Position numbers and translations under genes: made by a program
In this document: one piece after another, positions 1 through 39,357 of the stretch
Position numbering within the stretch: the stretch's first letter is position 1
Layout: each line of letters starts with the position of its first letter
Notes under the pieces: generated by a model
What the model was told of the DNA's origin: nothing
The model's input: only the letters and a program-made list of their open reading frames with translations
Database searches by the model: none
Assembly: GCA_014894455.1 (NCBI GenBank)
Contig: JADBLN010000057.1
Location: 2,003 to 66,002 of the forward strand
Length of the DNA stretch: 64,000 nucleotides
DNA from: Acidobacteriota bacterium
GTDB lineage: Bacteria; Acidobacteriota; Aminicenantia; Aminicenantales; Saccharicenantaceae
Reading direction: 5' to 3'

Positions 1-254
1 TCGACGTCCTGGCCACGACGACGTTCTCGGGCCAGCATGCGCCCTGGATCGACGGCCTGGTCATGCCCGTCGTCTGGAAGAAGCTCTACGGGAAGGGCCG
101 GGTTTTCTACACGTCGCTCGGCCACGTCGCGGCGGATTTCGACGTCCCCGAGGCCCGCGAGATCGTCCAGCGGGGGCTCCTCTGGGCGGCCCGGGTCATG
201 GGCGACGACCCGCCCAAGATGAACATCTACGCGCCGCTTCTCAAAAAGAAATAG
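1..254 (+). CDS. ThuA-like domain protein, 3' end only (5' part lies outside the window)
   Basis: The frame is open from base 3 to the stop at 252-254. The tail ...[20 protein letters not shown]... matches the conserved ThuA C-terminal block. GC3 is high. Confidence 0.7.
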
Positions 255-2557: not shown

Positions 2558-3505
2558 CTATCTCCTTGTTCGGACGGGCCCATTTCCGGCGATCGCGCCC
2601 GCGTTGAATATTCTACACTTTTTCCGGGCGTTTATCACGAGCGCCCAGACCTCGGGATGACGGCCGCAGAGGGCCGCCACCCCGGCCGTCGCCATGGCCA
2701 TGAAAGCGGTCGAGAGCGCGTCGGCCGCGGCCGCGGATGGATGGGACGCCCAGGCGGCACGGTGCCCCCGGGCCGGGCGGCCCGTCCGCGGATCGACGAT
2801 GTGTTCACCCTTGACCTCGGTCCCGGAACCGCTCAGGGCGCGGTCCCGGAGAAAGACGCGGTCCGGGCCGGCCGACGTTCCCGCGATGGACCCGGCGCCG
2901 ACCGGCCAGCCCCGCCCGGATCCGCTTTTTCCCGGGCCCGGACCCGCGGCTAAGGCCGTGCTCGTGCCGGCATGGAGGAGGACGTTCCCGACCTCCCAAT
3001 CGCGGAGGACGGCCAGGGCGCCGTCCAGGGCGTACCCCTTGCCGACGGCTCCGAGGTCGAGCTCGAGCGGCGGGGTTTTCGCCTTCTCCTTGCAGGGGAG
3101 GCGCGCCACCTCGAACCCCTGACCGGTTTGGGCGACGCGGATGAGCGTGGCGAGCGCCGGGGGGGATGCTTTTATACGTCTTCCCGACGGCCGGCCGGAG
3201 GCCCGATAGTTGACGTCGAAAGCACCGTCCGTCTCCGCCTGGACGGCGGCCGCGATGCCCAGGACTTCGGCCGTCTCGATCCCGACGCGCAGGGACTCGC
3301 CCGGCCGGAGGCGCCCGATCCGGCTCGTCTCGCTCGACGGGTCGAAACGGCTGAAGAGCCTTTCGAGCCGGTCGACCTCGTCGAAGGCCGCCCGAGCCGC
3401 CTGCCCGGCGTAGGTCTCGTCCTTGCCGGCGATGAAGACCTCGAACACGGTCGACATCGCCTCGTGGGCGAACCGGTGAACGCGCTCTCCGGGTCGTAAG
3501 GACAT
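2558..3505 (-). CDS. apbE: FAD:protein FMN transferase (ApbE family)
   Basis: 315 aa from the ATG at 3505. The 589-aa track ORF is an upstream extension running into the neighbouring gene. ApbE hallmarks LDLGAVGKGYALD and EHIVDPRTGRPA are present. No signal peptide or lipobox is visible. Confidence 0.85.
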   Translation of the reverse strand: MSLRPGERVHRFAHEAMSTVFEVFIAGKDETYAGQAARAAFDEVDRLERLFSRFDPSSETSRIGRLRPGESLRVGIETAEVLGIAAAVQAETDGAFDVNYRASGRPSGRRIKASPPALATLIRVAQTGQGFEVARLPCKEKAKTPPLELDLGAVGKGYALDGALAVLRDWEVGNVLLHAGTSTALAAGPGPGKSGSGRGWPVGAGSIAGTSAGPDRVFLRDRALSGSGTEVKGEHIVDPRTGRPARGHRAAWASHPSAAAADALSTAFMAMATAGVAALCGRHPEVWALVINARKKCRIFNAGAIAGNGPVRTRR

Positions 3506-6705: not shown

Positions 6706-6835
6706 GTCGCCGCGTCCCTCCTCGGCCGCCCGCGCGGCCCTCTCCTCGTCGGCCCGGGGGTTCCGGGCTAAAGAACGCCCGTCCCCCCCGGCGATCCGGG
6801 GGAGACGGCGCGTGATATCGCAGCGTCAGGCCCGC

Positions 6836-8122
6836 TCAGACCCAGCCGCGGTCCTTGCAAGCGTTGGCAACGCGGCTGACGGAAATGACATACGCGGCGT
6901 CGCGCATGTAGAGCTTGCGCGTCCGGGCCAACTCGCTCACGGCCTTGAAGGCCGAGGTCATTTTGTCGTCGAGCCGGCTCAGGACCTCTTCCTTGGTCCA
7001 GAAGTAGTTCATGTTGCACTGGACCTGCTCGAAATAGCTGCAGGTGACCCCGCCGGCGTTGGCCAGGAAATCGGGGATGACGAAGATGCCGCGGCTCTTG
7101 ATGACCACGTCGGCTTCGGGGGTGGTCGGCCCGTTGGCGCCTTCGGCCATGACCTTGACCCGGGGCGCGATCTTCTTCACGGTCTCGGCGTTGACCTGGT
7201 TTTCGAGGGCGCAGGGGAGGAGGATGTCGACGTCCTGCTCGATCCAGGCGTCGCCGGGGAGCCGTTCGTACTCGAGGGCCTCGGCCTTGGCCTTGTCGAT
7301 GCCGCCGAAGCGGTCGGTGATGGCCCTGAGCTCCTCCAGTCTGACACCGCTCTTTTTCCGATAGGTGTAGGAGGCCTGGTCGGCCTGGTCCCAACAGGCG
7401 ACCGCGATGACCTTGCCGCCGAGCCGGGTGTAGAGCTCGATGGCGTACTGGGCGACGTTGCCGAAGCCCTGGACCGAGGCGACCGTCGTCTCGATCTTGA
7501 TGCCCAGCTCCTTGAGCGCCTCGCGGACCGTGTAGATGAGGCTGTAGCCGGTGGCCTCGGTCCGGCCGAGAGAGCCGCCCATGCCCACGGGCTTGCCGGT
7601 GATGAAACCGGGGTACTTGGCGCCGCGGATCGTCTCGAACTCGTCCAGCATCCAGAGCATGTGCTGGGGGCTGGTCATGACGTCGGGCGCGGGGACGTCG
7701 CGGAGGTGGCCGATGTCCTGGGCGATGGCCCGGATCCAGCCGCGGCAGAGCCGTTCCTGCTCGCGCTGGCTGAGGTCATGCGGGTCGCAGATGACGCCGC
7801 CTTTGCCGCCGCCGAGCGGGATGTCGACGACGGCGCACTTCCAGGTCATCCACATGGACAGGGCCCGGACGGTGTCGATCGTCTCCTGGGGGTGGAAGCG
7901 GATGCCGCCCTTGCAGGGGCCGCGGGCGTCGTTGTGCTGGCAGCGGAAGCCGCGGAAAACGCGGACGCTGTTGTCGTCCATGCGGACGGGGATCGAGAAA
8001 TGGTACTCCCGCAGCGGCTGCCGCAGGAGGTCCCGGGTCGGTTGATCGAGCTCGAGAAGGTCAGCGACACTGTCGAACTGTTTCTGGGCCATCTCGAACG
8101 CATTGAACCCTTTGGTGGCCAT
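6836..8122 (-). CDS. gdhA: glutamate dehydrogenase (Glu/Leu/Phe/Val dehydrogenase family)
   Basis: 428 aa. The catalytic-Lys signature VVDIPLGGGKGGVICDP and the dinucleotide fold VQGFGNVAQY are present. Confidence 0.95.
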   Translation of the reverse strand: MATKGFNAFEMAQKQFDSVADLLELDQPTRDLLRQPLREYHFSIPVRMDDNSVRVFRGFRCQHNDARGPCKGGIRFHPQETIDTVRALSMWMTWKCAVVDIPLGGGKGGVICDPHDLSQREQERLCRGWIRAIAQDIGHLRDVPAPDVMTSPQHMLWMLDEFETIRGAKYPGFITGKPVGMGGSLGRTEATGYSLIYTVREALKELGIKIETTVASVQGFGNVAQYAIELYTRLGGKVIAVACWDQADQASYTYRKKSGVRLEELRAITDRFGGIDKAKAEALEYERLPGDAWIEQDVDILLPCALENQVNAETVKKIAPRVKVMAEGANGPTTPEADVVIKSRGIFVIPDFLANAGGVTCSYFEQVQCNMNYFWTKEEVLSRLDDKMTSAFKAVSELARTRKLYMRDAAYVISVSRVANACKDRGWV

Positions 8123-8420: not shown

Positions 8421-10178
8421 ATGAGCGAATATGACGAGCGCGAGAAGGACGAACGGGCGGCCGTCAACCGGCGCCGGTTTCTCGGGTATTTCGCCGCGGC
8501 CGGCCTGGGGGGGACGTTCCTCCCCGGGGCCCTTCTCGCCGTGGCCCAGGACGCCTCCGAAATCAAGCCCGGCATGGTCGCCGCGGCGGCGAAGATCGCC
8601 GGCGTCCCGCTCACACCCGAGGCCGAGAAGTCGATCGCCGACGGCTTGAACCGGCGCGGCGGCCTGCTTCAGGACTTCCAGGCCCTCAGGGAGATGGACC
8701 TGGGCAACGACACGCCGTCGGCCCTTGTCTTCAATCCCATCCTTCCCGGGACGAAGCTCCCGGCCGGGGTGTCCATGCTGAAGATTTCCAAAGTCAAGAT
8801 CGTGGCGCCCCGGACCGACGAAGACCTGGCTTTTCTACCGGCGAGCCATCTCGCCGCGCTCCTCAAGAAGCGCGAGATCAAGTCCGTCGACCTGACCAGG
8901 CTCTGCCTCGAACGTCTCAAGAAATACGACCCCATCCTCCACTGCGTCGTCTCGCTTACGGAGGACCTAGCCCTGGAGCAGGCCGCCCTGGCCGACAAGG
9001 AGATCGCTTCGGGAAGATATCGAGGGCCGCTCCACGGCGTCCCCTGGGGGGCCAAGGACCTCCTGGCTGTGAAGGGATTCAAGACGACCTTCGGCGCCTC
9101 GCCCTTCAAGGACCAGACGATCGACAGGAACGCCACGGTTTATGATCGGCTGACCGAGGCCGGCGCTGTTCTCGTGGCCAAGCTGACCCTTGGGGCGCTG
9201 GCCATGGGCGACCGCTGGTTCGGCGGCCAGACGAAAAGCCCCTGGGACCCGAAGAACCCCGGCCAGGGCTCGAGCGGCTCTTCGGCCGGGCCGGCCGCGT
9301 CCGTGGCCGCCGGGCTCGTGCCTTTCGCCGTCGGCTCGGAGACGCGCGGCTCGATCATCTCGCCGGCGAGCCGTTGCGGTGTCACCGGTCTCAGGCCCTC
9401 TTTCGGCCGGGTCAGCCGCTACGGCGCCATGGCCCTGAGCTTCTCCATGGACAAGATCGGGCCGCTCTGCCGGACGGCCGAGGACTGCGCCGTCGTCCTG
9501 CATGCGATCCAGGGGCCTGACGGTCGTGACAACACCGTCCTCGACGTCCCCTTCGCCTGGGACGCCGGCCGCGACGTCCGCAAGCTCCGGGTTGGCTATC
9601 TCAAGTCCGACGTGGAAAAGGAGGTCCCCGACGATCCGAAGAATCCGGACAGGGTCCTGAGGACGAGAGAGATGCAGGCGTTCACAAAGGCCTCGCTCGA
9701 GGTCCTCCGGGGGCTTGGCGTCAGGCCGGTCCCGGTCGAGCTTCCGAAGATGGGCTCGGGGCCGATGGATTTCCTCCTGACCACGGAGGCGGCCGCCGCC
9801 TTCGACAGCCTCGTCCGTAGCGATAGGCTCGACCTGATGTCGGCCGAGCCGGAACGCAGCGCTTGGGTCGGGGCCTTCCGCCTCCACGAGGTCGTCCCTG
9901 CCGTCCAGTACATCCAGGCGAACAGGGCCCGCTACCGGCTGATGGAGGCCTACCACGAGTTCTTCAAAGATATGGACGTGCTCGTCGGGAGCGCGTTGGG
10001 ACCGACGAACCTCACCGGACATCCCGAAGTGGTTTTTCCGCACGGCTTCGACTCCAAGGGCCAGCCGGCTGTCCTGCGTCTGACGGGGCGGCTCTTCGGC
10101 GAAGCGGACATCTTGCTCCTCGCCCATGCCTTCCAACGGAAAACGGACTTTCACCTCAAGCGGCCGAAGCTCGGCTGA
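8421..10178 (+). CDS. Tat-exported amidase (amidase-signature family)
   Basis: 585 aa with twin-arginine signal NRRRFLGYFAAAGLGG. The Gly/Ser-rich AS block GQGSSGSSAGPAASVAAGL and the Lys context PWGAKDL are present. A strong SD (GGAAAGGAGG) precedes the ATG. Confidence 0.85.
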   Translation: MSEYDEREKDERAAVNRRRFLGYFAAAGLGGTFLPGALLAVAQDASEIKPGMVAAAAKIAGVPLTPEAEKSIADGLNRRGGLLQDFQALREMDLGNDTPSALVFNPILPGTKLPAGVSMLKISKVKIVAPRTDEDLAFLPASHLAALLKKREIKSVDLTRLCLERLKKYDPILHCVVSLTEDLALEQAALADKEIASGRYRGPLHGVPWGAKDLLAVKGFKTTFGASPFKDQTIDRNATVYDRLTEAGAVLVAKLTLGALAMGDRWFGGQTKSPWDPKNPGQGSSGSSAGPAASVAAGLVPFAVGSETRGSIISPASRCGVTGLRPSFGRVSRYGAMALSFSMDKIGPLCRTAEDCAVVLHAIQGPDGRDNTVLDVPFAWDAGRDVRKLRVGYLKSDVEKEVPDDPKNPDRVLRTREMQAFTKASLEVLRGLGVRPVPVELPKMGSGPMDFLLTTEAAAAFDSLVRSDRLDLMSAEPERSAWVGAFRLHEVVPAVQYIQANRARYRLMEAYHEFFKDMDVLVGSALGPTNLTGHPEVVFPHGFDSKGQPAVLRLTGRLFGEADILLLAHAFQRKTDFHLKRPKLG

Positions 10179-13361: not shown

Positions 13362-14048
13362 TTACCGCCGGTGGGCGCCCATCGCCTCGAGGGCCACATA
13401 GACCGCGGCGGCGAGGGCCGAGGCTAATGCGCTGTAACGGTGAAATTCGAACATGAGCTTCTGCCCGGCGGTGCGGAGGAGAGGGAGCATGGGCAGGAGG
13501 GCGGATAGGGCCAGCAGGAAACCGGCCAGGACGAATAGCCAGAAGGCGGCGAGTTTGACCCGGGCCGCCGTGATGCCCATCTTCCTGGGGTCGAGAAGGG
13601 CAAGGCTCAGGTTGACCGGCTCGGGGACGGAGATGAAATCCCGGCCCTTGAAGATGACGATGACGGCGAGGCAGGCCGCGAAGAGGCCGCCGGCCATGAC
13701 GTGGCCGACTAGGGGGAAGCCGTAGAGTCCGCGCGGGACGAATATCGCGAAGAAAAAACCGCTCGCCGCGAGATAAGCGAAACTTCCGTAAAAGCCGATA
13801 TAAAGCCACTTCTCAAGGACGGGGAGGCGCCATAGAGACAGGGCCTTGACATATTCCCACGAGGCTTTGGGCGAAGCCTTGCGGGCCGATTGGATCGTCC
13901 GGAGGGCCAGCCAGGCCAGGTACTTCTTGAAGATCTCGACGTAGATGATGGTCGACCGGGCCTCCTCTCTGGTCGTCCAGAAACGGTGGAAGGCGAGGCC
14001 GGCGAAAAGCCCCAGCGCCGAGAGGATGGTGATGATCGTGAACAGCAT
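13362..14048 (-). CDS. polytopic membrane protein (about 5 TM, His in three TM segments); possible cytochrome b-like partner
   Basis: 228 aa from the ATG at 14048, which lies 5 nt after the cytochrome stop. The track ORF to 14378 is an overlap extension. Hydrophobic segments carry HRFW, GHVMAGG and FHRY. Confidence 0.65.
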   Translation of the reverse strand: MLFTIITILSALGLFAGLAFHRFWTTREEARSTIIYVEIFKKYLAWLALRTIQSARKASPKASWEYVKALSLWRLPVLEKWLYIGFYGSFAYLAASGFFFAIFVPRGLYGFPLVGHVMAGGLFAACLAVIVIFKGRDFISVPEPVNLSLALLDPRKMGITAARVKLAAFWLFVLAGFLLALSALLPMLPLLRTAGQKLMFEFHRYSALASALAAAVYVALEAMGAHRR

Positions 14049-14053
14049 GGCTC

Positions 14054-16399
14054 TCACCTTTTCTCGAGGAAGCCGGCCAGGCGCCCGAGGAGGAGCAGGC
14101 CGGCCAGGAAGACGAGCGACCCGATGACGAAAGCGCAGACGGCCAGGACGACCTTGAACAGCGGCCGGGTGATGAAGGACAGCCCGAAGAACTTCTGGAA
14201 GAGCCCGCCCAGGCCCATGAAGGAGGCGGCCGAACGCTTCTCCACCTTCGCCGTCAGCAGGGGACCCGTCCCACGGAGCTTGGTGAAGAAGAAGTCCGAC
14301 CCGCCGCTGTGGCAGTCCGCACAGCCGTTCCATCCGAGCGACTGCTGGGCCGGCCGCACGTTGTGGGCCAGGGGCCAAGTCACGGGCTCGGCCGCGGGAT
14401 GGGCGCCGGCTGCGAGCTTTCCGTTCTTGTCGAGCCGGAACATCCGGCCTCCGGAGATGTAGACGAAATCGGATTTTTCCCCTGATTTGGCGAGCGCCGC
14501 GAGAACGAGCGCGACCTGCTCCTCGGTCAGCGTTTGCTCAGTCCCGGCTTTGGCCGTCACGGTCCTCAGGTCGAAGTCCGAGGCGAGGGGCAGGAATTTT
14601 CCCTCCGCCCGCCAGCCGGGGCCCGAGGCCTCGGCGAGCTCGGCCGGAGCGTCCGACATGTCGAGGATGCCGTCGACGAGCCGGTAGAGCGTCTTCTTGA
14701 CGACGATGACAGGCTGGCCCGGCGCGCTGACGACCGTCCCCAGCGCCTGCAGGAACTCCTGGAATCTCGTTTCGACGGCCGGGTCCTTATCGGCCGCGGC
14801 CGGATCGAAATCCGGGACGAGCGGCAGGACCTCGGCTCCCTTGCGGATGCCCCAGAACGGGACGGTGTCCGCCTTGGCTCCCGGGCGCTCTGCCGAGTCG
14901 ATGCCGCCGTCGACGTTCGGGGCGAAGACGAACTTGCTCGAGACGAGGACCGGCACTTCGTCTTCGGCCATGACCTGGCTGAGAGCGACGAGCGCCTGGG
15001 CGACCCGCTCTTCGGGCTTGAGGATGTCGCCGGCGGCGGCCTCGACGACCCCCGGCTGGAGAGGCGCGACTTCCCTGCCGCTCATCTTCGCCCAGAAGGC
15101 CGGCCAGACGAGCCTGTTCGGGGCGATCTTGTGTCCGGCGCTCTTGGCGTAGACAGGTTCGATGACCGCGGGCAGGTCCGTCGCCCACGTCGCGACGCCG
15201 TAAATGCCGAGCCGGTTGGCCCGCGAGGTCCGCACCCGGGTGAAGCCCTCTTTCGGCTTAGGACCCGAATGGCAGACCGTGCACGCGAGCCGCTTGAAGT
15301 GGACGAGCGGGATGCCGGTGTGCTTGGGGAATGGCGCGCCGAGCCGGCCCGGGACGACCGACTTCTCGCCCGCCTCGTTCTCGCCGAGATGACAGCCCCG
15401 GCAGGTGAACGATTCCGCCGTCCGGTTCCCGGTCTCGGCGGTCTCGCCCTCGTAGCCGCGGACGATGGCGTGGCCGAGATCGTTCCGGTGGCAATCGGCG
15501 CACTTCAGGCCGGCCGTCGAGTGGACGTCGGGGTCGGTGTTCATGCGCTGCTCGTCCTTGGGCGAGACCGAGTGGCAGGCCAGGCAGCGCTCGTCCGACG
15601 GCTGGTAGTTGAGGTCGAAGAAGTAGCGGTGCTTGGAGTCGAAGTCGGCCGTCCTGTACTTGACGGACGGGACGACGGCCCACTCGTGGTCGTCGAGGTT
15701 GGGCCCGTCATAAACGTCCCACGTTTCCTTGAGCCGGGAGGCCATGCCGCCGACCTCGCCGACGCCGCCGGCCGCCGTGGCAGCCCAGCGCAGGTTCTCG
15801 CGGAGGACCTGTTTGGCCCACTCGCTTTGGTCCTGGCGTCCCGACTTGTTGTGGCAGGCGAGGCAGTTCACTTCGGCTTTCCCGGAGACGCTCCAGCGTG
15901 CTTCGGGGTCGGCCAGGACCTCTTCGTCGGAAGGCTCGGCGGGACCGCCGCCCGGGAGGTGCCGGCCGAAGAGAAGCGCGAAATCCCAGGCCGTCAGGCC
16001 GAGGGCCTTGGGGTCGAAGGTTCCCGCCCACTTCCTGTACGAGAGGGGCATGACGGTCCCTGTTTTCGGGTCGAGCCGGATCCAGGGTTCGCCGGGCCGG
16101 CCGTTCTTGGCCGCCGTCATGGCGCCGAAGTGCCAGCCGCCCTGGATCGTCTTGTAGTCGTGGCAGGGGCCGCAGGTGAAGCGGGCGGAATAGGGCAGGG
16201 GGTTCGTCTCCGTCGGGATGATGGGCTGGTCGTTCTCGTCGCGGAGCGGGATGAGGTGGGCTGGCGTCGTCCGGTTGCCGTCCCAAACGGCCTTCTTCGC
16301 GTCCTGGCCGGCGGACGCGGCGGAACCGGCCGGGGCGAGGGCGAAGACGGCGAGCGCAAGGCCCAGGGCTCCGAGGGTGTATCGTCCAGGGCGGCTCAT
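14054..16399 (-). CDS. membrane-anchored heptahaem c-type cytochrome
   Basis: 781 aa with a signal peptide. It has seven CXXCH motifs (CGPCH, CLACH, CLACH, CADCH, CRGCH, CTVCH, CADCH) and a C-terminal hydrophobic anchor. The start overlaps the upstream stop (ATGA at 16396-16399). Confidence 0.88.
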   Translation of the reverse strand: MSRPGRYTLGALGLALAVFALAPAGSAASAGQDAKKAVWDGNRTTPAHLIPLRDENDQPIIPTETNPLPYSARFTCGPCHDYKTIQGGWHFGAMTAAKNGRPGEPWIRLDPKTGTVMPLSYRKWAGTFDPKALGLTAWDFALLFGRHLPGGGPAEPSDEEVLADPEARWSVSGKAEVNCLACHNKSGRQDQSEWAKQVLRENLRWAATAAGGVGEVGGMASRLKETWDVYDGPNLDDHEWAVVPSVKYRTADFDSKHRYFFDLNYQPSDERCLACHSVSPKDEQRMNTDPDVHSTAGLKCADCHRNDLGHAIVRGYEGETAETGNRTAESFTCRGCHLGENEAGEKSVVPGRLGAPFPKHTGIPLVHFKRLACTVCHSGPKPKEGFTRVRTSRANRLGIYGVATWATDLPAVIEPVYAKSAGHKIAPNRLVWPAFWAKMSGREVAPLQPGVVEAAAGDILKPEERVAQALVALSQVMAEDEVPVLVSSKFVFAPNVDGGIDSAERPGAKADTVPFWGIRKGAEVLPLVPDFDPAAADKDPAVETRFQEFLQALGTVVSAPGQPVIVVKKTLYRLVDGILDMSDAPAELAEASGPGWRAEGKFLPLASDFDLRTVTAKAGTEQTLTEEQVALVLAALAKSGEKSDFVYISGGRMFRLDKNGKLAAGAHPAAEPVTWPLAHNVRPAQQSLGWNGCADCHSGGSDFFFTKLRGTGPLLTAKVEKRSAASFMGLGGLFQKFFGLSFITRPLFKVVLAVCAFVIGSLVFLAGLLLLGRLAGFLEKR

Positions 16400-17769
16400 G
16401 CTTTGAACTGCTCCGGCCGGAAGTCCATGACCCGGCGGGCCCTGACGGCTTCGTTGGTCTTTAGCACGGCGACGCAGGACTCGTAGGCGAGCTCCGCCGG
16501 GCAGTTAAGAGACGTCCCGCGCCGGACGGCGTCGAAGAAGTTCTCGAGATGCGGCTGGTGGGCCGGCTTGGCCAGCTCGACTGGCAGGGGCCAGCGCCCG
16601 GCCTCGGCCGTCACCCGGACGTCGACGTAGACGTTCTTCGTCGTCGACTTCTGGATGGGCACGCTCTCGGACTGGAGGAGGCCGGCCTTCGCCAGGGAAT
16701 CCCATTCCGGGGCGTGAGGTTCGCGCATGGCCCAGTTGCCGCGCTGGGGGATCTCGGAGAGGACGAGCGAGCCGTTATCTCCCATGAAGGTCTCGTAGAA
16801 ACCGCCGTGCTGGGTCGTCGTCTGGACCTGGTAGAAGGCCCGCGACGTCCCCTCCTTCGTCTCGAACTCGTAGATGGCCATGACGTTGTCGTACCATTCC
16901 CAGTTCTTGTAGTAGTCGAGGCCGCCGCTGGCCACGACCGACTTGGGGTGCGTGCCGTAGACCCAGCTGAAGAGGTCGATCTGGTGGGAGCCCAGATCGA
17001 CCATCGGTCCGCCGCCGAACTTCTTGAAAAGGCGCCAGTTACGGAACTCGGTCATGGAGTTGTAGCCGTACTTGTCGAGGGTGGCTTGGTCGATGACATA
17101 CTTTTCCGGCCAGCCGAGAAGGTCCGCCTTGGCCCGGTTCCACTGGGCGTAAGCGACGGTCACCCGGCCGAGGAGGCTGCGGTCGCGGATGAGGCGGTCG
17201 ATGGCGTGGATGTAGCGCGGGTTGGAGCGGCGCTGGTGCCCGATCTGGAGGAGCTTGCCGGTCTCGCGGGCGGCCAGGACCATGGACCGGGCCTTGTCGA
17301 GCGAGTTGGACATCTCTTTTTCGCAGTAGACGTGGAGCCCGGCCCGGAGGCAGGCGTCGGCCTGTTCGGCGTGGACCCAGTCGGGGGTGGCGACGACGGC
17401 CGCCTGGAGGCCCTTCTCCGCGGCCAGGAGCTCGCGGTAATCCTCGTAGACGTTGGCGACGTGGCCGTACTTCTTGAGGTAGTTGCCCGCGTACTGGCGG
17501 CTGTAGGACCAGATGTCGCAGATGGCCGCGATGCGGACCGACGGGATGCGCAGCATGGACTCGATGAGGACGCGGCCCTGGGCGCCGCAGCCGATGACGG
17601 CGACGCGGAGCTCGTCGGCGCTTTTCGCGGCCGCGGGCGCGGCCTGGGATGGCGACTGGCCGAGGGCGGTCCCGGCCAGGGCGACGCCGAGGCCTGCCGT
17701 AGCCGAGGATTTGAGGAAATCGCGACGGGTGATCCGGTCTATCGCCGGCCTTTTTTCGGATATGCCCAT
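16396..17769 (-). CDS. Tat-exported Gfo/Idh/MocA-family oxidoreductase
   Basis: 457 aa with Tat motif TRRDFLKSSATAGLGVALAG. The Rossmann start is LRVAVIGCGAQGR and a conserved EKE-type segment (VYCEKEM) is present. An SD AGGAG lies 8 nt upstream. Confidence 0.88.
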   Translation of the reverse strand: MGISEKRPAIDRITRRDFLKSSATAGLGVALAGTALGQSPSQAAPAAAKSADELRVAVIGCGAQGRVLIESMLRIPSVRIAAICDIWSYSRQYAGNYLKKYGHVANVYEDYRELLAAEKGLQAAVVATPDWVHAEQADACLRAGLHVYCEKEMSNSLDKARSMVLAARETGKLLQIGHQRRSNPRYIHAIDRLIRDRSLLGRVTVAYAQWNRAKADLLGWPEKYVIDQATLDKYGYNSMTEFRNWRLFKKFGGGPMVDLGSHQIDLFSWVYGTHPKSVVASGGLDYYKNWEWYDNVMAIYEFETKEGTSRAFYQVQTTTQHGGFYETFMGDNGSLVLSEIPQRGNWAMREPHAPEWDSLAKAGLLQSESVPIQKSTTKNVYVDVRVTAEAGRWPLPVELAKPAHQPHLENFFDAVRRGTSLNCPAELAYESCVAVLKTNEAVRARRVMDFRPEQFKA

Positions 17770-17849: not shown

Positions 17850-18869
17850 TCAGCCGCGGCCGGCCAGGCCCTCGAGCTCCTTGCGGCTCTCCGGAGTAGT
17901 GATGAAAACGAGGATATCCTTTTCCCGGAGGACGGTGTCGGCCGGCGGATTGAAGATGTAGCCCGGGCCGCCCTCGCGCTTGACGGCGACGAGGAGGGAT
18001 TCCCGCTTCTCGTGGATCGTCGTCTCGGCCAGGGTTTTCCCGGCCAGGGGGGAGCCGGGCTCGACCTCGACCTCGTCGACGCGGAAGGCCTTGTCTCTCT
18101 CCCGGAGCATCATGTCGAGGAAGGTCACGGCGGCCGGCCGGACCATCTGGGAGACCATGCGCATGCCCCCGATGAAGGTCGGAGACACGGCGTAGTCGGC
18201 GCCGGCCCGGACCATTTTTTCGTGGGACTTGACGTCGATCCCCTTGGTCACGATCCGGATCTGCGGGTTGAGCTGGCGGGCCGTGACCGTGACGAAGAGG
18301 TTGGCCTCGTCGGTGGGCAGGGAGAGGAGGATGCCGCGGGCCCGTTCGATCCCGGCCTTCTTCAGCACCTCGTCGTCGGCCGGGTCGCCTTCGACGAAAA
18401 GAAAGGTCGCCGCGGCCGCGGCCTTGTCGATCTTGGCCCGGTCCGGCTCGACGACGACGAAATCCCGTTTCGTCGTGATGAGCTCCCGGATGATGGTCTG
18501 GGCCGTCTCGTCGGCGCCGCAGACGATGTCGTGGCCCTTGAGCCGGCCGATGTCCTTTTCCATCTTTCGCCTCCCCAGGATGCGTTTGAGCTCCCCCTCG
18601 ACGACGAACGCGGTGATCGAGGTCACGGCGAAGGCGATCGTCCCCAGGGAGAGGATGATGTAGGCGGCGGCGAAGACGCGGGCGGCCGGGTTTCCGCCGA
18701 GGTCGTGGGTTTCGCCGTAGCCGACGGTGCCGACGGTGATGACGGTCATGTAGACCGCGTCGAGGAGGGACCATTCGGCGCCGCCGATCGTCTTGAAGCC
18801 GGCGACGCCGATGAGGAAGACGGTGACAAACAGCCCGAGGGAGATGAAGATGCGTTTGCGGCTGTCCAT
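17850..18869 (-). CDS. 2-TM K+ channel with RCK (TrkA-N/TrkA-C) domains (MthK-like)
   Basis: 339 aa with selectivity filter TVGTVGYGE. The RCK Rossmann segment is GHDIVCGADETAQ and a C-terminal TrkA-C-like domain follows. Confidence 0.88.
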   Translation of the reverse strand: MDSRKRIFISLGLFVTVFLIGVAGFKTIGGAEWSLLDAVYMTVITVGTVGYGETHDLGGNPAARVFAAAYIILSLGTIAFAVTSITAFVVEGELKRILGRRKMEKDIGRLKGHDIVCGADETAQTIIRELITTKRDFVVVEPDRAKIDKAAAAATFLFVEGDPADDEVLKKAGIERARGILLSLPTDEANLFVTVTARQLNPQIRIVTKGIDVKSHEKMVRAGADYAVSPTFIGGMRMVSQMVRPAAVTFLDMMLRERDKAFRVDEVEVEPGSPLAGKTLAETTIHEKRESLLVAVKREGGPGYIFNPPADTVLREKDILVFITTPESRKELEGLAGRG

Positions 18870-18930
18870 CGTGTTCCGGCGTCCTTAGCCCCGATTATAC
18901 GAAAGCGGCGGCGCTTCCGCAAGGCGGCGC

Positions 18931-20550
18931 TCAGCGCTTGAAGAGATGGACGAGCTTCTTCAGGTATTCGAGAACGGACTTCTTGTCGGCGCCCGCTTCG
19001 ATATCCCGGGCGGCGAGGTCCTTGACCTTCCGCAGCGTCTCCAGGTTCGCCCGGTTCCGGCCGCTGACGACCTCGGCGACCGCGTCGGTGAGCTGGGGAT
19101 TGCGGGCGAGCAGCGCGGCGAAGGCCCCGGCCCGGATCTCGAGGAGCTCGGCCTCTTCGGCGACGACCACGGTGGCCGTCCGCGGCATGCCCGTGAAGAG
19201 CGACATCTCGCCGACGAGCCCGCCCGGGCCGACCGTGAAATCCGTCGTGTAGGCCTTCCCGTTCTCCTCGTAGGCGATCTCGCCCTTGACCCGGCCGCCG
19301 GCGACGAGATAGCAGACCTCCCCCGGATCGCCCTGCCGGAAGATGACCTCGCCGGCGCCGAAGCGGCGGCGATCGGCCCTCGAGGCGAGCTCCCGGATCT
19401 CGGGATCCGAGAGCAGCGGCTGGCCGGCCTTTTCCCCCTCCCCGAACTGCAGGAACGCCGACCGGGCGAAGTCCTGGAAGTTCTTTTCCTTTTCCGTGGA
19501 GATCTCGGCGATCCGGTCCTCCGACGGCCGGAGGACACGGAGGATGTCCTTCAGCTTGCTCTCGACGGGGACGGGGATCTCGATCCCCAGCCGGCGAAGC
19601 TTGTGCCAGACGAGCCGGCCGACCTCTCCGGCGATGGCGGGCCTGCGCCCGTAGTCGGAGATCCAAAATTTCGCGAGGTAGGACAATCCGAACTCGTCGT
19701 AGCTCTGCAGGTAGGCGGTCGGGGCGGGCTCGGCGAGAACCCCCGCCGTCTCCCTGGCCGCCTCGACCAGAAGCCCCAGGACGACGGCCGGCGGGGCCAG
19801 GAAGTCGACCTTGATCGGAAGGACGACGGCCGAGGCCCGGTCCGGAAGGGAGAAATTGACGATCGTCTGTGAGGCGACGACGGTGTTGGGGATGACGACG
19901 ATGTTCGAGGCCCGGTCCCGCAGCCGCGTCTCCCGCCAGTTCGTGTCAACGACCTGGCCTTCCATCTCCCCGACCTTGACCCAGTCGCCGCGGCTGAAGG
20001 ATTTCGTGTAGTGGAGCGACATCCCGGAAAAGACGTTGCCGAGCACGCCCTGGAGGGCCAGGCCGAGGACGGCCGTCAGGATGGCCGAGCCGGCCAGCAG
20101 GGGTGTGATGTTGAAGCCGAGAAACTCGCGGAGGATGGCCAGAGCGGCCGCGATATAGACGACGATCAGGAAAAAGCCGTGGAGGACGCGAGGCAGGGGA
20201 AACGGCCGCTCCTTTTTCTCGTACCGCACGCGGACGAGGCCGTCGAAGAGCCGGACGAGGAAGAAGATGACGGAAAAGACGAAGGCGGCGTCGACGAACC
20301 TGAAAAACTTCGCCCCGAGCGGCAGGGCGGTCCTGAGAACCGGCAGCTTGGCCAGTCCGGCGGCGGCCAGGAGAGAAACCGGAAGGAGGAGCCTGAACCG
20401 CAGGCCGGTCACGCTTCTCGCGCCGGCGGCCTCTGGACGGACGAAAACCCGGCGGAGCAGGGCCATGACCAGGCCCGCCAGCGCGATGAAGAGGATAGCG
20501 AAGAGGATCTGCCCGTATAGCGTCAACTCCGGAGAGAAGTTCTTCTCCAT
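18931..20550 (-). CDS. MscS-family mechanosensitive channel fused to a C-terminal cyclic-nucleotide-binding domain (bCNG-type)
   Basis: 539 aa with N-terminal TM helices and an MscS beta-domain. The CNB motif reads FRQGDPGEVCYLVAGG...VGEMSLFTGMPRTATVVA. Confidence 0.85.
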   Translation of the reverse strand: MEKNFSPELTLYGQILFAILFIALAGLVMALLRRVFVRPEAAGARSVTGLRFRLLLPVSLLAAAGLAKLPVLRTALPLGAKFFRFVDAAFVFSVIFFLVRLFDGLVRVRYEKKERPFPLPRVLHGFFLIVVYIAAALAILREFLGFNITPLLAGSAILTAVLGLALQGVLGNVFSGMSLHYTKSFSRGDWVKVGEMEGQVVDTNWRETRLRDRASNIVVIPNTVVASQTIVNFSLPDRASAVVLPIKVDFLAPPAVVLGLLVEAARETAGVLAEPAPTAYLQSYDEFGLSYLAKFWISDYGRRPAIAGEVGRLVWHKLRRLGIEIPVPVESKLKDILRVLRPSEDRIAEISTEKEKNFQDFARSAFLQFGEGEKAGQPLLSDPEIRELASRADRRRFGAGEVIFRQGDPGEVCYLVAGGRVKGEIAYEENGKAYTTDFTVGPGGLVGEMSLFTGMPRTATVVVAEEAELLEIRAGAFAALLARNPQLTDAVAEVVSGRNRANLETLRKVKDLAARDIEAGADKKSVLEYLKKLVHLFKR

Positions 20551-20553
20551 GGC

Positions 20554-21372
20554 TCATTCCTTTCCGAGTTTGAGACCCTGGGCCGCCGCGAGCGTCGCCG
20601 GAAAGCGCCCGCGTGCTTCCCCGAGGATAATGTCCACCGCGTCGTCGGTGTGGGCGGGGTTAAAATGGGCGAGGACGAGATGCCCAACCCCCGACCCGGC
20701 GGCGAGCGACGTCCCGGCCAGCCAGGTCGAATGACCCCAGCCCTTTCTGCCGGCTTCGTATTCCGCGGGTGTGAACATGGCGTCAGAGACGAGGTACTCC
20801 GCGCCGCGGGCGAAAGCGGCCAGGCGTTCGTCGATGCCCGTCTCCGGATGCTCCGTGTCCGTGGCCAGGACGACGCTCCTCGCGCCGGCATCGAGCCGGT
20901 AGGCGACGCTGCCCTGGGGGTGGCGGAGGCGGCAGGCGGAAACCCCGATGCCTCCGGCGAGCGGCCCCGGCGCGAATTCCCGGAATTCTTTCCGGGCTGC
21001 CGTCCGGCCGAGCCCGAGGGGAAAATAGGGGTAGGCCATCAGCCCGGCGAGGGCGCTTTCCGTCTCCCGGGCTCCGGCCGGGGCATGGACGACGAGCATC
21101 GTCCGGGGCGAGAAGAGGGGCGCGAACACCGGGAATCCCATGATATGGTCGAGGTGGAAATGGGTCAGCAGGAGGTCGATGCGGATGTCCCCGTCTCCCT
21201 CCTCGGCCATGATCCGGTCGCCCAGCTCGCGGAGGCCCGTTCCGGCGTCGATGACGATGTACTGCCCGGGCCCGACCCGGACCGACGAGCAGGTCGTGTG
21301 CCCGCCGTAGCGGGCCCAGGCGGCCCCCGGCGCCGGCGCCGTTCCGCGGACTCCCCAGAATTCGAGTTCCAT
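20554..21372 (-). CDS. MBL-fold metallo-hydrolase, possibly a class II-type cyclic-nucleotide phosphodiesterase
   Basis: 272 aa. The metal motif LLLTHFHLDHIMG matches the start of the class II PDE signature HxHLDH[LIVM]x[GS] (recalled from memory). It lies 9 nt after the cyclase gene and 3 nt before the CNB-channel gene. Confidence 0.8.
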   Translation of the reverse strand: MELEFWGVRGTAPAPGAAWARYGGHTTCSSVRVGPGQYIVIDAGTGLRELGDRIMAEEGDGDIRIDLLLTHFHLDHIMGFPVFAPLFSPRTMLVVHAPAGARETESALAGLMAYPYFPLGLGRTAARKEFREFAPGPLAGGIGVSACRLRHPQGSVAYRLDAGARSVVLATDTEHPETGIDERLAAFARGAEYLVSDAMFTPAEYEAGRKGWGHSTWLAGTSLAAGSGVGHLVLAHFNPAHTDDAVDIILGEARGRFPATLAAAQGLKLGKE

Positions 21373-21381
21373 GGTCTTATC

Positions 21382-23505
21382 CTATTTTTTATCGAGCTCG
21401 TAGATGCCGTCCCAGTCGCTGGGTGGGGGCGAGGCTGCCGACTGCCGCGCCCGGCCGGCGTAGACCGCTGCCACGGGGTCGCCGGCGAGGGCTTCGAACA
21501 TGGCCGCGGCCTCGGAGAAGCGTTGCGCCCGGTAGGTTTCGAGGGCCCGGCCGAAACGGGCCGCCTTTTCCATTTCCTCGGCGGGGACCGCGCCCTTTTC
21601 CCCGAGGAGCTCGAAGACGCGGATGGGCTGTTTCTTCCCGACGACACGGATGACGTCCACTTCCCGGGCCAGGATCTCGTCCCGCACCCGCCGCTCCGTC
21701 TCTTCGCCGACGAGAGTTGAAACCCCGTAGACCTTGCCGGCGCCCTCGAGCCGCGAGGCCAGGTTCATCGTATCGCCCATGGCCGTGTAGTCGAAGCGCC
21801 GCTCCGAACCCATGTTGCCGACGACGGCCGGGCCCGAGTTGATCCCGACCCGCATGCGGACCTCGTGCCCGTAGCTGCGGCGGAAGTCCTCGCGGCGTTC
21901 GGCGAGCCGCCGCTGGCAGCGGAGGGCGGCCCGGCAGGCCCGCAGAGCGTGGTCGGGAAGGTCGAGCGGCGCGTTCCAGAAGGCGATGATGGCGTCGCCT
22001 TCATACTTGTCAAGGGTGCCGCCGAGGTCGAGGATGATGTCCGTCATCTCCGAAAGGTAGGCGTTGAGCAGGCCGACGAGGTCTTCGGGCGAGAGGCCCT
22101 CGGAGATCGAGGTAAAGCCCGCGACGTCGGAGAAAAAGGCGGTGATCTCCCGCCTCTCGCCGCCGAGCCGGAGGAGGGACGGGTTGTCCAGGACGCGTTC
22201 GATGACCTGTGGGCTCAAGTAAAAGCGAAAGGCGTTCTTGATGAAGCGGCGCTGGCGTCCTTCGACGCCATAGCTGAGGAGCGCGGCCGCGATGAAGGCG
22301 GAGAGCGCCGCGAAGGCCGGGGCGACGAACTCGATCCAGACGCCGGCCCGGGCGGCCAGGAGGGAGCCCGCAGACGCCAAGGCCGGCAGGGACAGTCCGA
22401 GGGCGGCGAGATGTCCGGTTTTCTTCAGCATCGACGTTCCAATCCCGGCGAGGAGGGCGAAAACGAGGACCGAAACCCAGGTGACGACGGCGGGGGCCTC
22501 GCGGATAAACGTCTTGCCGACGAGGTTGTCGAGGGCCGTGGCCAGGATTTCCATCCCCGGATAGACGCCGCCGAAAGGCGTCGGGCGGAAGTCAAGCAGT
22601 CCGGCCGCCGTCGTCCCGACGATGACGGTCTTGCCGGCGAATTCCCGGGGCTGAACCTGGGGCTCGAGGCCTTCTTCGATGCGGGCCTGGGAATTGATGA
22701 TCGCGCCGATCGAGTAGGTTTTATACGTCCCGCGCGGGCCGAAAAAGTGGAGGATCATGTTTCCCGAACGGTCCAAGGGGACTTTGTGGAGGTCCACCCC
22801 GTCGGAGATGAATTCGGCCATGGCCAGGGGCAGGGCCGGAAGGAGCCAATCTCCGTAGCCAAAGACGAGCGGCAGCCGCCTGTAGACGGAATCGCCGTCC
22901 GGGACGAACTGGACGTTGCCCATCTTCACGGCGGTCGCGGCCAGGATGTCGACCGGCAGGGACACGGACCTTGCCAGAGGGACTGCCCACTCCTCTGGAG
23001 ATGAGGGGACGGTCCCTCTGGGACTGGCGGAACGGGCGAGGACTTCTTCCGCGACCGGGGCGGCCTCCTTCTCCTCGCGGCTGAGGAAGAAGGGCAGGAA
23101 GACGTTTCCCGCGCGGGTCATGGCCTCGGCCAGGAGCCGGTCGTCGTCGACGCCGTAGGTCGAATCCTCCGTTAGCATGAGGTCGAGAAAGACCGCCTTG
23201 GCGCCGCCTGCCTTCAGGAAGTCGAGGACGCCGGCGTAGATCTGCCGCGGCCAGGGCCAGCCGAGGCCCTGCTCTTTTTCGTAGACATCCAGACTGGACT
23301 GGTCGATGGCCAGGAGGACGATGTCGGCGTCGGCGCGGGAGGGATCGGCGAGAAGTTGGAGGCGCGCGTCCCATGACTTCCACTCTAGGGGCGGGAAGAC
23401 CTTCAGGAGGCCCAGGAGTAAGGTGAGGGCGAAAACGGCCAAGCCGACCGCGAGGCCTCGAAGAGCTTTCTTGCGGGCCGGAGATTTCGTCTTTTCGTTC
23501 GGCAT
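21382..23505 (-). CDS. CHASE2-domain membrane adenylate/guanylate cyclase (class III)
   Basis: 707 aa. An N-terminal TM is followed by a ~300-aa extracytoplasmic region, three TM helices, and a catalytic domain (EITAFFSDVAGFTSISE, GDAIIAFWNAP, RVGINSGPAVVGNMG). Confidence 0.88.
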   Translation of the reverse strand: MPNEKTKSPARKKALRGLAVGLAVFALTLLLGLLKVFPPLEWKSWDARLQLLADPSRADADIVLLAIDQSSLDVYEKEQGLGWPWPRQIYAGVLDFLKAGGAKAVFLDLMLTEDSTYGVDDDRLLAEAMTRAGNVFLPFFLSREEKEAAPVAEEVLARSASPRGTVPSSPEEWAVPLARSVSLPVDILAATAVKMGNVQFVPDGDSVYRRLPLVFGYGDWLLPALPLAMAEFISDGVDLHKVPLDRSGNMILHFFGPRGTYKTYSIGAIINSQARIEEGLEPQVQPREFAGKTVIVGTTAAGLLDFRPTPFGGVYPGMEILATALDNLVGKTFIREAPAVVTWVSVLVFALLAGIGTSMLKKTGHLAALGLSLPALASAGSLLAARAGVWIEFVAPAFAALSAFIAAALLSYGVEGRQRRFIKNAFRFYLSPQVIERVLDNPSLLRLGGERREITAFFSDVAGFTSISEGLSPEDLVGLLNAYLSEMTDIILDLGGTLDKYEGDAIIAFWNAPLDLPDHALRACRAALRCQRRLAERREDFRRSYGHEVRMRVGINSGPAVVGNMGSERRFDYTAMGDTMNLASRLEGAGKVYGVSTLVGEETERRVRDEILAREVDVIRVVGKKQPIRVFELLGEKGAVPAEEMEKAARFGRALETYRAQRFSEAAAMFEALAGDPVAAVYAGRARQSAASPPPSDWDGIYELDKK

Positions 23506-34312: not shown

Positions 34313-34372
34313 TGATTTTCTCCTTACCTCGGGTTGCCTGGGTTGATATTCCGCTCGGCGTACGTAAGAGCT

Positions 34373-34600
34373 CTACAGTTTCGAGAGCTCCTCCAAAGTC
34401 AATCCCGCCGCTTTGAGAATGGCCTTCAGTGTCCCTTTAGGAATCGATGTCCCGGGGTGATTGGGGATGGTTGTCCTTCGACGGGTAAGGGGATTCAGCC
34501 AGATTTCATGGCTGCCTTTGGCCTGCCTATCGAAGATAAAGCCCGCCTTGCGGAGCCTGCGGATGACCTCGTTGGCCGTCAAGGAGGGGAGTTTGGTCAT
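34373..34600 (-). CDS. hicA: HicA-family toxin (mRNA interferase)
   Basis: 75 aa. The sequence NEVIRRLRKAGFIFDRQAKGSHEIW...TIPNHPGTSIPKGTLKAILKAAGL is the classic HicA/YcfA pattern. It overlaps the hicB stop by 4 nt. Confidence 0.88.
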   Translation of the reverse strand: MTKLPSLTANEVIRRLRKAGFIFDRQAKGSHEIWLNPLTRRRTTIPNHPGTSIPKGTLKAILKAAGLTLEELSKL

Positions 34601-34848: not shown

Positions 34849-34933
34849 CCTATTCTCCTGGACGTATTCTAACACAAGCAGTTTATCGGAACAATCCAAC
34901 GGCGGACACCTCCGTCGTATCCAAGATCGTCCC

Positions 34934-35995: not shown

Positions 35996-36104
35996 GGGCC
36001 CTCCTCTTGCTAACTTCTCTCCCTGCCCATTTGGACTGAGTTCATGAGCAGTTTCTTCCATCCATTATTCTCCCCTGGAGAAGGCCAGGTTCCGGGCCAG
36101 ATTC

Positions 36105-37280: not shown

Positions 37281-37301
37281 GCCGTTCCTCCCTCCCGATT
37301 C

Positions 37302-37354: not shown

Positions 37355-37363
37355 TGGCTCACC

Positions 37364-39346: not shown

Positions 39347-39357
39347 TTTCGGCCTTC

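Follow-up and report, generated by a model that had tools for sequence, protein, structure and literature searches.

The locus described here raises the question of whether a periplasmic sugar oxidoreductase of the Gfo/Idh/MocA family can be wired, through a dedicated chain of haems, to the quinone pool of the membrane. It comes from an Acidobacteriota bacterium of the class Aminicenantia (GenBank assembly GCA_014894455.1, contig JADBLN010000057.1) and lies within a stretch of 64,000 nucleotides (nt), hereafter the window. The listing of open reading frames (ORFs) and direct reading of the DNA identify three co-directional genes on the minus strand that encode a dehydrogenase (hereafter GFO), a cytochrome and a membrane protein, in this order (Table 1). 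The first-pass annotation, made from the sequence of the window alone, proposed a periplasmic sugar dehydrogenase accompanied by a cytochrome c and a cytochrome b-like partner, and this proposal is supported by comparative genomics. The reading that we favor, with a probability of about 0.55, is that the three proteins would form one membrane-bound, periplasm-facing dehydrogenase complex that passes electrons from sugars via haems to quinone; it draws on the order of the genes and their coupling junctions, on motifs and family memberships, and on gene fusion and co-inheritance across phyla.

The stop codon of the GFO gene and the start codon of the cytochrome gene overlap in an ATGA, and a 4-nt overlap of this type recurs in at least 25 related loci. 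The junction between the cytochrome and membrane protein genes reads TGA-GAGCC-ATG, i.e., the two are separated by a 5-nt gap. Thus, the shared orientation and both coupling junctions are present where the first-pass annotation had placed them. A scan for promoters and terminators detected nothing exceeding chance. A genome scan with the cytochrome profile yielded a set of 80 Aminicenantes loci, each from a different species-level genome. As traced by tblastn with the window proteins, the order GFO-cytochrome-membrane protein is kept in all 80 as far as the contig reaches, and the membrane protein gene directly follows the cytochrome gene in each of the 72 loci that could be assessed for it. 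Identity to the window proteins in these loci ranges from 68 to 97% for GFO, from 49 to 92% for the cytochrome and from 29 to 92% for the membrane protein. The genes that flank the trio (those for an MscS-like channel, a TrkA-type channel and a TetR protein) are common to the closest relatives only.

A distant set was assembled from the contigs of eight cytochrome homologs with 35-45% identity (L081-L088). A GFO_IDH_MocA gene is located immediately upstream of the cytochrome gene in all eight; a membrane protein of 200-265 amino acids (aa) is encoded immediately downstream in six, fused to the cytochrome in L082 (positions 5448-7817) and absent in L083. With a hidden Markov model of the membrane protein, fusions of the cytochrome and membrane domains, 720-1000 aa in length, are detected in about 40 of the 150 best representatives (e.g., P0256, P0284, P0250 and P0263, of which P0284 was confirmed on its contig). 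In the fusions, the anchor helix of the cytochrome occupies the place of helix 1 of the separate membrane protein. The reverse test, a metagenome scan with the profile of the GFO subfamily, returned 80 loci, 70 of which have at least 600 nt downstream of the GFO gene; the cytochrome gene is found immediately downstream in 65 of these 70 and after an intervening gene in one. Furthermore, the identities of GFO and of the cytochrome to their window counterparts are correlated with r = 0.96 over 86 loci. The reverse test and this correlation together suggest that the linkage between GFO and the cytochrome is bidirectional and ancient. By the synteny counts, the arrangement of the trio is far beyond chance. 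By sequence comparison, the trio is conserved across phyla, namely Aminicenantes, Planctomycetota, Omnitrophota and Calditrichota, and the suspicion that it might be a peculiarity of a single genome is dispelled by the 80 Aminicenantes loci, the distant phyla, the 65/70 reverse loci and the fusions.

GFO is best classified as a member of an uncharacterized Gfo/Idh/MocA subfamily. A Pfam search identifies the N-terminal Rossmann domain PF01408 (67 bits, cut-off 24) and the C-terminal alpha/beta domain, as PF22725 (46 bits, cut-off 27) and PF02894 (45.3 bits, cut-off 22.9). The N-terminus, which begins MGISEKRPAIDRITRRDFLK, contains the twin-arginine motif TRRDFLK noted at first pass, in agreement with the consensus (S/T)RRxFLK and combined with a hydrophobic stretch. 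The corresponding twin-arginine translocation (Tat) signal is recognized by TIGR01409 (23.4 versus a cut-off of 16.7), with the Pfam TAT_signal profile falling 0.1 bit short (22.6 versus 22.7), and the residues R15, R16 and F18 are nearly invariant in GFO orthologs from other phyla. In the alignment of the subfamily, the glycines of the GxGxxG motif (G60, G62 and G65) and Asp85, at the end of beta-2, are invariant. The 11 GFO sequences compared, from several phyla, show little or no variation in the EKP-type motif CEK151EM and in D258LGSH262, which contains the Asp-x3-His/Tyr motif. Lys151 and Asp258/His262 are presumed to be catalytic, as in glucose-fructose oxidoreductase (GFOR) and inositol dehydrogenase. 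The nucleotide-binding and Lys/Asp/His motifs are intact in the window copy and invariant across phyla. The GFO proteins that adjoin these cytochromes form one subfamily, with 44-54% identity between Aminicenantes and the other phyla and with long invariant motifs (VYCEKEM, LLQIGHQRRSNPRY, GGGPxVDLGSHQID and HQPHLENFF). The best NCBIfam match of GFO is BT_2158_fam glycoside 3-dehydrogenase (NF058561), with 87.9 bits, followed by myo_inos_iolG with 80. However, GFO falls outside NF058561, given that the equivalog cut-off is 750 bits and that only positions 1-266 of the 487 in the profile are matched; this shortfall is common to all 11 subfamily members tested. The NCBIfam models cover the Rossmann half of GFO only, and so do the matches to solved structures, which include DgpA, inositol dehydrogenases, GFOR and the dehydrogenases 8tdf/8tdh/8tdi; 1,5-anhydrofructose reductase is also among the matches in the PDB. 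The possibility that GFO functions solely as a GH109-type redox-neutral glycosidase was considered and rejected because the match to 2ixa (E 4.6e-6) is likewise limited to the Rossmann half and the obligate cytochrome would be left unexplained.

The cytochrome contains exactly seven CXXCH motifs (starting at residues 76, 179, 272, 300, 333, 373 and 693), with no CXXCK or CX3-4CH variants in its 781 aa, and a signal-like segment at the N-terminus (residues 9-27). The seven sites and the C-terminal anchor that had been claimed for this protein were both found. In 76 orthologs, each of the seven CXXCH motifs is conserved at the level of at least 99%, and seven further histidines outside the motifs (48, 90, 293, 310, 360, 367 and 679) are conserved as well; their counterparts are invariant or nearly invariant in the alignment of the short-type cytochromes. 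Each haem is accordingly provided with a single candidate distal ligand, the situation in electron-transfer cytochromes, which suggests that all seven c-haems are of the bis-His, electron-transfer type. The motifs, the additional histidines and the signal peptide identify the protein as a multihaem c-type cytochrome, and the Pfam profiles Cytochrome_C7 and Cytochrom_c3_2 match residues 291-382. In contrast, no family of haem enzymes is reached: the NCBIfam matches (NrfA, OTR, DmsE-type) score 17-24 bits versus cut-offs of 166-375, and a PDB profile search detects only haem-pair stretches of NrfA of about 50 residues. With such short, sub-threshold matches, and with a candidate distal histidine for each of the seven CXXCH motifs, the cytochrome does not fall into a characterized multihaem enzyme family (NrfA, HAO/octahaem, OTR or MccA), an assignment that would have undermined the original proposal.

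The first-pass annotation also described a haem-free insert of about 330 residues. There are indeed 316 residues between sites 6 and 7, but only about 160 of these (roughly 466-623) are lineage-specific, being peculiar to the Aminicenantes type; the flanks, 386-465 and 624-690, belong to the conserved core of the wider cytochrome family, in which the insert of a typical member is about 170 aa long. AlphaFold2 predicts an alpha/beta fold for residues 431-671, with a per-residue confidence (pLDDT) of 75-93, and a Foldseek search of the modeled insert against the PDB finds no neighbor with E<0.1, the resemblances to PCNA-like alpha/beta folds being vague. When 1.84 billion cluster representatives were searched exhaustively with the profile, the cytochrome family was found to comprise 887 clusters (50% identity) at E<=1e-3, of which 397 reach E<=1e-30. 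A typical member consists of 600-660 aa with the same seven CXXCH motifs and the C-terminal anchor, and some members reach about 1000-1080 aa through much longer haem-free inserts; haem site 7 is kept in both the long and the short types. The named members of the short type come from Planctomycetota, Sedimentisphaerales, Candidatus Omnitrophota and Calditrichae and are annotated as "hypothetical" or "multiheme c-type cytochrome".

The membrane protein contains five hydrophobic helices and histidines at positions 21, 116, 203 and 226. The first-pass annotation had counted about five transmembrane segments, three of them with histidine; the five helices stand, but the number of invariant histidines is two rather than three. 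In the 76 Aminicenantes orthologs, conservation amounts to 100% for His116, 99% for His203 and 99% for Met187, compared to 57% for His21 and 3% for His226. Across phyla, Gly97, Gly110, Leu113, His116, Trp170, Met187 and His203 are invariant; in a larger cross-phylum set, His203 remains so and His116 has one exception among 27 sequences, and a second histidine in helix 5, 14 residues further on, is present in some relatives only. Conserved histidines, the lack of which would have spoken against a cytochrome b-like partner, are therefore present. A homolog search with the 228-aa protein gave only relatives with at least 74% identity, and the family link was drawn from the distant loci: PF01292 is matched by 12 of the 13 aligned family members, with the best E-value of 2.2e-8, and is recorded in precomputed tables for L081, L085 and L088 and, faintly, for L084. 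Judged by these profile matches of its relatives, the protein is probably a divergent member of PF01292 (cytochrome b561/Ni-hydrogenase cytochrome b), in which, instead of the four histidines that hold two haems, His116 and His203 alone are conserved. From the positive-inside rule and the topology of the fusions, we infer that the N-terminus is outside and that helices 3 and 5 carry the two histidines toward their periplasmic ends. Such a location near the periplasmic face would place a single haem b in the vicinity of the cytochrome's haem 7. A search of the PDB with the profile of the membrane protein family detects a weak local match to the haem-ligand helix of cytochrome b6 ("HRWSA", E 0.035), a hint that is not used as evidence.

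In the proposed complex, GFO would fold around NAD(P) in the cytoplasm and would then be exported by Tat, whereas the cytochrome would be exported by Sec, acquire seven bis-His c-haems and remain tethered via its C-terminal helix. The membrane protein would bind one haem b through His116 and His203, close to the periplasmic face. The substrate would be a sugar or glycoside, oxidized at a secondary alcohol (most likely the C3 hydroxyl, to give a 3-keto-glycoside), and the electrons would pass from the sugar to the bound NAD(P), then to a putative two-electron/one-electron converter, the seven c-haems, haem b and, finally, (mena)quinone. Because ligands are conserved only for the haem b on the periplasmic side, the electron-transfer step itself is probably electroneutral, and energy would be conserved upon re-oxidation of the quinol. 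The complex could be used for net respiratory oxidation of glycosides or for the supply of 3-keto-sugar and oxidized cofactor that would prime an otherwise redox-neutral periplasmic 3-keto-glycoside pathway. Here, we infer complex formation, the class of the substrate, the direction of electron flow and quinone as the acceptor.

The genomic context in other phyla provides clues to the substrate. Outside Aminicenantes, a gene for a fusion of AP_endonuc_2 and 3keto-disac_hyd domains is often located directly upstream of the GFO gene (in L085, L086 and many metagenome loci), and in L083 this position is occupied by a ThuA-3keto-disac_hyd fusion. The O-glycoside beta-eliminase presumably adopts a xylose-isomerase-like TIM-barrel fold. 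This enzyme acts on C3-oxidized glucosides (PMC10628242), and the families of the fused upstream genes act on 3-keto-glycosides (PMC8121099; PMC10628242). In Bacteroides thetaiotaomicron, the DUF1080/3keto-disac_hyd protein BT2157 hydrolyses 3-keto-trehalose, and BT2158 is a proposed Tat-exported Gfo-type oxidase whose oxidant was not identified, with only "another as yet unidentified sugar" put forward for this role (PMC8121099). Thus, the upstream 3-keto-glycoside genes in other phyla support glycoside C3 oxidation as the reaction class and, with it, the sugar-type substrate envisaged at first pass.

The window itself contains a second sugar-oxidoreductase cluster (33323-43097, minus strand), with two AP_endonuc_2 (xylose-isomerase-like) genes and genes for a beta-propeller protein, a 695-aa HEAT-repeat protein and three paralogs of GFO, two with 27-30% identity and the third with 22%. 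The paralog at 39358-40701 has a Tat signal according to Pfam, and the tblastn alignment of the paralog at 40730-42040 starts at residue 4 of the Tat-bearing N-terminus of GFO. The GC content falls to 0.55 at 34-36 kb of the window.

Table 1. Features of the trio and of its companion block (positions in the window; residue numbers refer to the encoded protein)
Feature	Position	Strand	Basis
Predicted Tat-exported Gfo/Idh/MocA oxidoreductase (GFO), putative catalytic subunit, 457 aa	16396..17769	-	Pfam, NCBIfam, cross-phylum alignment
Twin-arginine motif TRRDFLK, GFO residues 14-20	17710..17730	-	TIGR01409
ATGA overlap, GFO stop/cytochrome start (translational coupling)	16396..16399	-	direct reading
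Heptahaem c-type cytochrome, 781 aa; predicted Sec-type signal, periplasmic body and C-terminal membrane anchor	14054..16399	-	motifs, hydropathy
Haem sites 1-6, residues 76-377	15269..16174	-	CXXCH motifs
Haem-free region between sites 6 and 7, residues 378-692	14324..15268	-	motif spacing, AlphaFold2
Haem site 7, CADCH, residues 693-697, some 55 residues N-terminal to the anchor	14309..14323	-	motif
C-terminal transmembrane anchor, residues 750-768, hydropathy 2.77	14096..14152	-	hydropathy
Five-helix membrane protein, 228 aa; putative divergent PF01292 cytochrome-b-type, presumed quinone-side partner	13362..14048	-	homolog profile matches
His116 codon, helix 3, predicted periplasmic end, candidate haem b ligand	13701..13703	-	conservation
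His203 codon, helix 5, predicted periplasmic end, HRY/W motif, candidate haem b ligand	13440..13442	-	conservation
ApbE-family FMN (flavin mononucleotide) transferase, 315 aa, no signal peptide	2558..3505	-	Pfam ApbE 120 bits, domain from residue 17
Secreted F5/8-type-C (discoidin-like) protein, 225 aa	1878..2555	-	Pfam F5_F8_type_C 33.6 bits
PMT_2/GT-C-type glycosyltransferase, 535 aa	274..1881	-	Pfam PMT_2 42 bits, PMT 40 bits

The trio also has a companion block of genes, missed at first pass, which encode an ApbE-family FMN transferase, an F5/8-type-C protein and a PMT-type glycosyltransferase. In the window, as identified by tblastn and Pfam, this block shares the strand of the trio, with about 10 kb of unrelated genes between them; the ApbE and F5/8-C genes are separated by a 2-nt gap, and the stop codon of the F5/8-C gene overlaps the start of the PMT gene by 4 nt. 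Seven of the eight distant loci have an ApbE gene no more than about 6 kb from the trio, usually in the order unnamed protein of 186-276 aa, PMT/PMT_2, ApbE. Among the 58 Aminicenantes genomes in which this could be assessed, 29 have ApbE shortly downstream of the trio. The block is seen with the trio in Planctomycetota, Calditrichae and many Aminicenantes, with Omnitrophota possessing ApbE only. The F5/8-C protein of the window is 47-63% identical to the products of the unnamed genes beside PMT/ApbE in L081-L088, and the window PMT protein is 30-39% identical to those of the same loci. In two loci of the reverse set, L159 (764-2887) and L163 (511-5108), the GFO gene is directly followed by those for F5/8-C, PMT and ApbE, and the cytochrome is absent, a hint that the block serves the GFO enzyme and belongs with it rather than with the cytochrome. 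Between the block and the trio, the window encodes a 585-aa amidase (8421-10178, plus strand) that is predicted to be Tat-exported given its twin-arginine-like N-terminus NRRRFLGYFAAAG. At the other end of the block, positions 3-254 (plus strand) encode the C-terminal end of a ThuA-like protein, which is truncated at the edge of the window and whose gene converges on that for PMT.

Several points weigh against a respiratory dehydrogenase, the most serious being a chemical one. Haems carry one electron at a time, whereas NAD(P)H is an obligate hydride donor whose oxidation in one-electron steps is very unfavorable; furthermore, none of the three proteins has an evident flavin, quinone or Fe-S site. 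The NAD(P)H-to-haem step is accordingly the weak point of the proposal. A signal peptide is absent from all the trio-linked ApbE proteins, which would therefore act in the cytoplasm, before Tat export. It is possible, although doubtful, that the missing converter is an FMN bound covalently at a non-canonical site and installed by the co-conserved, signal-less ApbE before the export of its target. The flavinylation motif of ApbE substrates, which is [S/T]GA[S/T]-like (10.1101/2021.01.07.425746), is absent, in either a strict or a relaxed form, from GFO, the cytochrome, the membrane protein, the F5/8-C protein and PMT in the window and in L081-L088, and there is no conserved small-small-Ser/Thr column in the candidate flavinylation targets. 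Hence, with no canonical flavinylation motif in the six conserved proteins, the ApbE link leaves the converter gap in place. Other difficulties concern individual proteins and the context. The homology of GFO to characterized enzymes is restricted to the Rossmann half, so that the substrate is not assignable from homology, and most Aminicenantes loci lack 3-keto-glycoside genes beside the trio, these being found in 5 of 62. Four of the 70 reverse-test loci contain GFO without the cytochrome. The window's own 228-aa protein has no Pfam match, with none to PF01292 even at E<=1, and its AlphaFold2 model, which is based on a shallow alignment, is poor (pLDDT 58) and was left out of the fold search; the model of the haem domain of the cytochrome is unusable (pLDDT of about 30). 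For every step of the scheme, the support is comparative-genomic.

In its architecture, the trio works like known membrane-bound dehydrogenases; it is widespread and uncharacterized. Its catalytic subunit resembles GFOR of Zymomonas mobilis and the aldose-aldose oxidoreductase of Caulobacter in possessing the Gfo/Idh/MocA fold and, as predicted here, in Tat export around a non-dissociable NAD(P) and in periplasmic sugar oxidation; structures of these enzymes (1h6a, 1ofg and 5a02) are among the PDB matches to the Rossmann half of GFO. However, GFOR re-oxidizes its cofactor by reducing a second sugar in a ping-pong reaction, with no redox partner protein, whereas the GFO of the trio is inseparably linked to a heptahaem cytochrome and a cytochrome b, and its substrate-binding C-terminal half is not alignable with GFOR. 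The likeness to BT2158 of B. thetaiotaomicron (NF058561) consists in the best NCBIfam match with the longest coverage, including the signal region, and in the Tat signal and, in other phyla only, also extends to the BT2156/BT2157 cluster through the AP_endonuc_2 and 3keto-disac_hyd (DUF1080) genes in the operon (PMC8121099). Nevertheless, with 88 bits versus 750, GFO is not a member of the BT2158 family, and the B. thetaiotaomicron cluster has no cytochrome (PMC8121099); the trio adds a dedicated haem wire.

In their logic, glucoside 3-dehydrogenase/LacABC, fructose dehydrogenase and gluconate 2-dehydrogenase are similar to the proposed complex, with a Tat-dependent periplasmic head, a multihaem cytochrome c and the quinone pool as the destination of electrons. 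LacABC has been called "cytochrome c-dependent" (PMC8121099), and fructose dehydrogenase consists of three subunits with FAD and three c-haems (PMC8601194). Unlike the trio, however, these flavoprotein-cytochrome c dehydrogenases employ a catalytic subunit with FAD, which solves the conversion of two-electron into one-electron transfer, together with a trihaem class-I cytochrome, and have no cytochrome b. Searches of Pfam and NCBIfam detect neither a FAD/GMC domain nor a class-I cytochrome c domain in the three trio proteins, which accordingly belong neither to the glucoside 3-dehydrogenase/LacABC nor to the fructose dehydrogenase type. On the membrane side, the closest parallel is with FdnGHI and HyaABC, in which a Tat-exported periplasmic unit feeds a PF01292 cytochrome b that reduces quinone, as proposed here. 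His116 and His203 presumably occupy the positions at which helices 2 and 4 of the four-helix core of FdnI carry the ligands of the periplasmic haem. In the FdnGHI and HyaABC anchors, four histidines hold two haems and electrons move across the membrane, whereas in the trio the periplasmic pair alone is conserved; the membrane protein of the trio also has an extra N-terminal helix, and its input would come from a chain of c-haems rather than from Fe-S clusters. A literature search found no description of a Gfo/Idh/MocA enzyme coupled to a multihaem cytochrome, with the reservation that subscription journals were thinly covered and absence from such a search is no proof; to this extent, the trio is undescribed, as the first-pass annotation supposed.

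The same wiring might serve a different purpose. Periplasmic enzymes with a non-exchangeable NAD(P), such as those of the GFOR, GH109 and BT2158 types, are redox-neutral and become trapped in the NAD(P)H form if the oxidized intermediate escapes. The trio could then be a valve for cofactor rescue or priming, rather than a respiratory dehydrogenase, with the haem chain occasionally draining the trapped electrons to quinone; it could also produce the initial 3-keto-sugar and thereby set the cycle going for the several other Tat-exported GFO enzymes with genes in the vicinity. Such a role appears unlikely, although it deserves attention: further Tat-type GFO paralogs and AP_endonuc_2 proteins are encoded near the trio in the window and in the distant loci, a redox-neutral scheme requires an initial oxidant, and, with the periplasmic-side haem b alone conserved, no energy would be conserved by the step itself. 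A seven-haem cytochrome and a cytochrome b kept at 65/70 loci are, however, heavy machinery for occasional repair, and the valve shares the NAD(P)H-to-haem problem with the respiratory dehydrogenase. The block with ApbE, F5/8-C and PMT invites another interpretation, in which a glycan, periplasmic or linked to lipid, is built or bound by the PMT-like GT-C enzyme together with the discoidin-like protein and the GT2 enzymes of other phyla and is then oxidized by GFO, with the electrons passing to the haems. This block accompanies the trio in four phyla and in the window, it directly follows GFO without the cytochrome in L159 and L163, and a divergent Glycos_transf_2 gene adjoins in L082, L085, L086 and L088. 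Modification of an envelope glycan is nevertheless improbable given that there is no known envelope pathway with such a dehydrogenase, that the other recurrent neighbors are 3-keto-glycoside catabolic genes and that, in the window, the block is separated from the trio by about 10 kb of unrelated genes.

Electrons could also flow in the opposite direction, from quinol via cytochrome b and the haems to GFO, which would then function as a periplasmic reductase of 3-keto-sugars or other carbonyl compounds. PF01292 anchors and multihaem chains serve reductases as well (of the Nrf and Tor/Dms types); bis-His c-haems often have low potentials, GFO enzymes are reversible, and 1,5-anhydrofructose reductase appears among the PDB matches. 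Yet menaquinol (about -75 mV) cannot drive the reduction of NAD(P)+ (-320 mV) without an input of energy, reduction of NAD(P)+ by one-electron donors is equally problematic, and the neighbors in other phyla consume 3-keto-glycosides made by oxidation, all of which makes the reversed flow quite improbable. Finally, the cytochrome could be part of a route of extracellular electron transfer, with GFO as a mere neighbor. A weak Pfam match to the MtrC/MtrF domain (E 0.009 here) is recorded for many members of the family, but the C-terminal helix apparently anchors the cytochrome in the inner membrane, many lineages have it fused to a cytochrome b of that membrane, the loci examined show no recurrent porin or outer-membrane partner, and the linkage to GFO is bidirectional (65/70 and 88/88 loci), so that this explanation is very improbable.

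If the trio is indeed a dehydrogenase complex that delivers electrons to quinone, the implications extend beyond Aminicenantes. Bacteroidota, Planctomycetota, Acidobacteriota and related phyla abound in Tat-exported periplasmic Gfo/Idh/MocA enzymes, which are now tied to the breakdown of glycans via 3-keto-glycosides; a dedicated haem chain to quinone would be one answer to the question of how the non-exchangeable cofactor of these enzymes is re-oxidized. It would also directly link polysaccharide degradation to anaerobic respiration in abundant uncultured lineages of sediments and wastewater. The trio would define three large families that are today annotated as "hypothetical", of which the cytochrome alone accounts for the 887 clusters mentioned above. 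Should an FMN turn out to be the converter, the complex would provide the first case of a periplasmic NAD(P)-enzyme that delivers electrons to the quinone pool, as well as a new kind of ApbE substrate, and the supply of oxidant for the Tat-exported Gfo-type glycoside 3-dehydrogenases would be explained. The transfer from NAD(P)H to haem and the role of a cytoplasmic ApbE thus constitute a concrete, testable biochemical problem.

Two other regions of the window deserve mention. Immediately upstream of the trio, the region 17850-23505 (minus strand) encodes a TrkA-N/TrkA-C K+ channel, an MscS-like channel with a cyclic-nucleotide-binding domain, an MBL-fold protein and a CHASE2 adenylate/guanylate cyclase; this neighborhood of signaling and ion-channel genes is common to the closest relatives only. 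Further away, at 44817-50288 (minus strand), there are three consecutive large ORFs of 534, 776 and 489 aa, putative genes with no Pfam match at E<=0.001.

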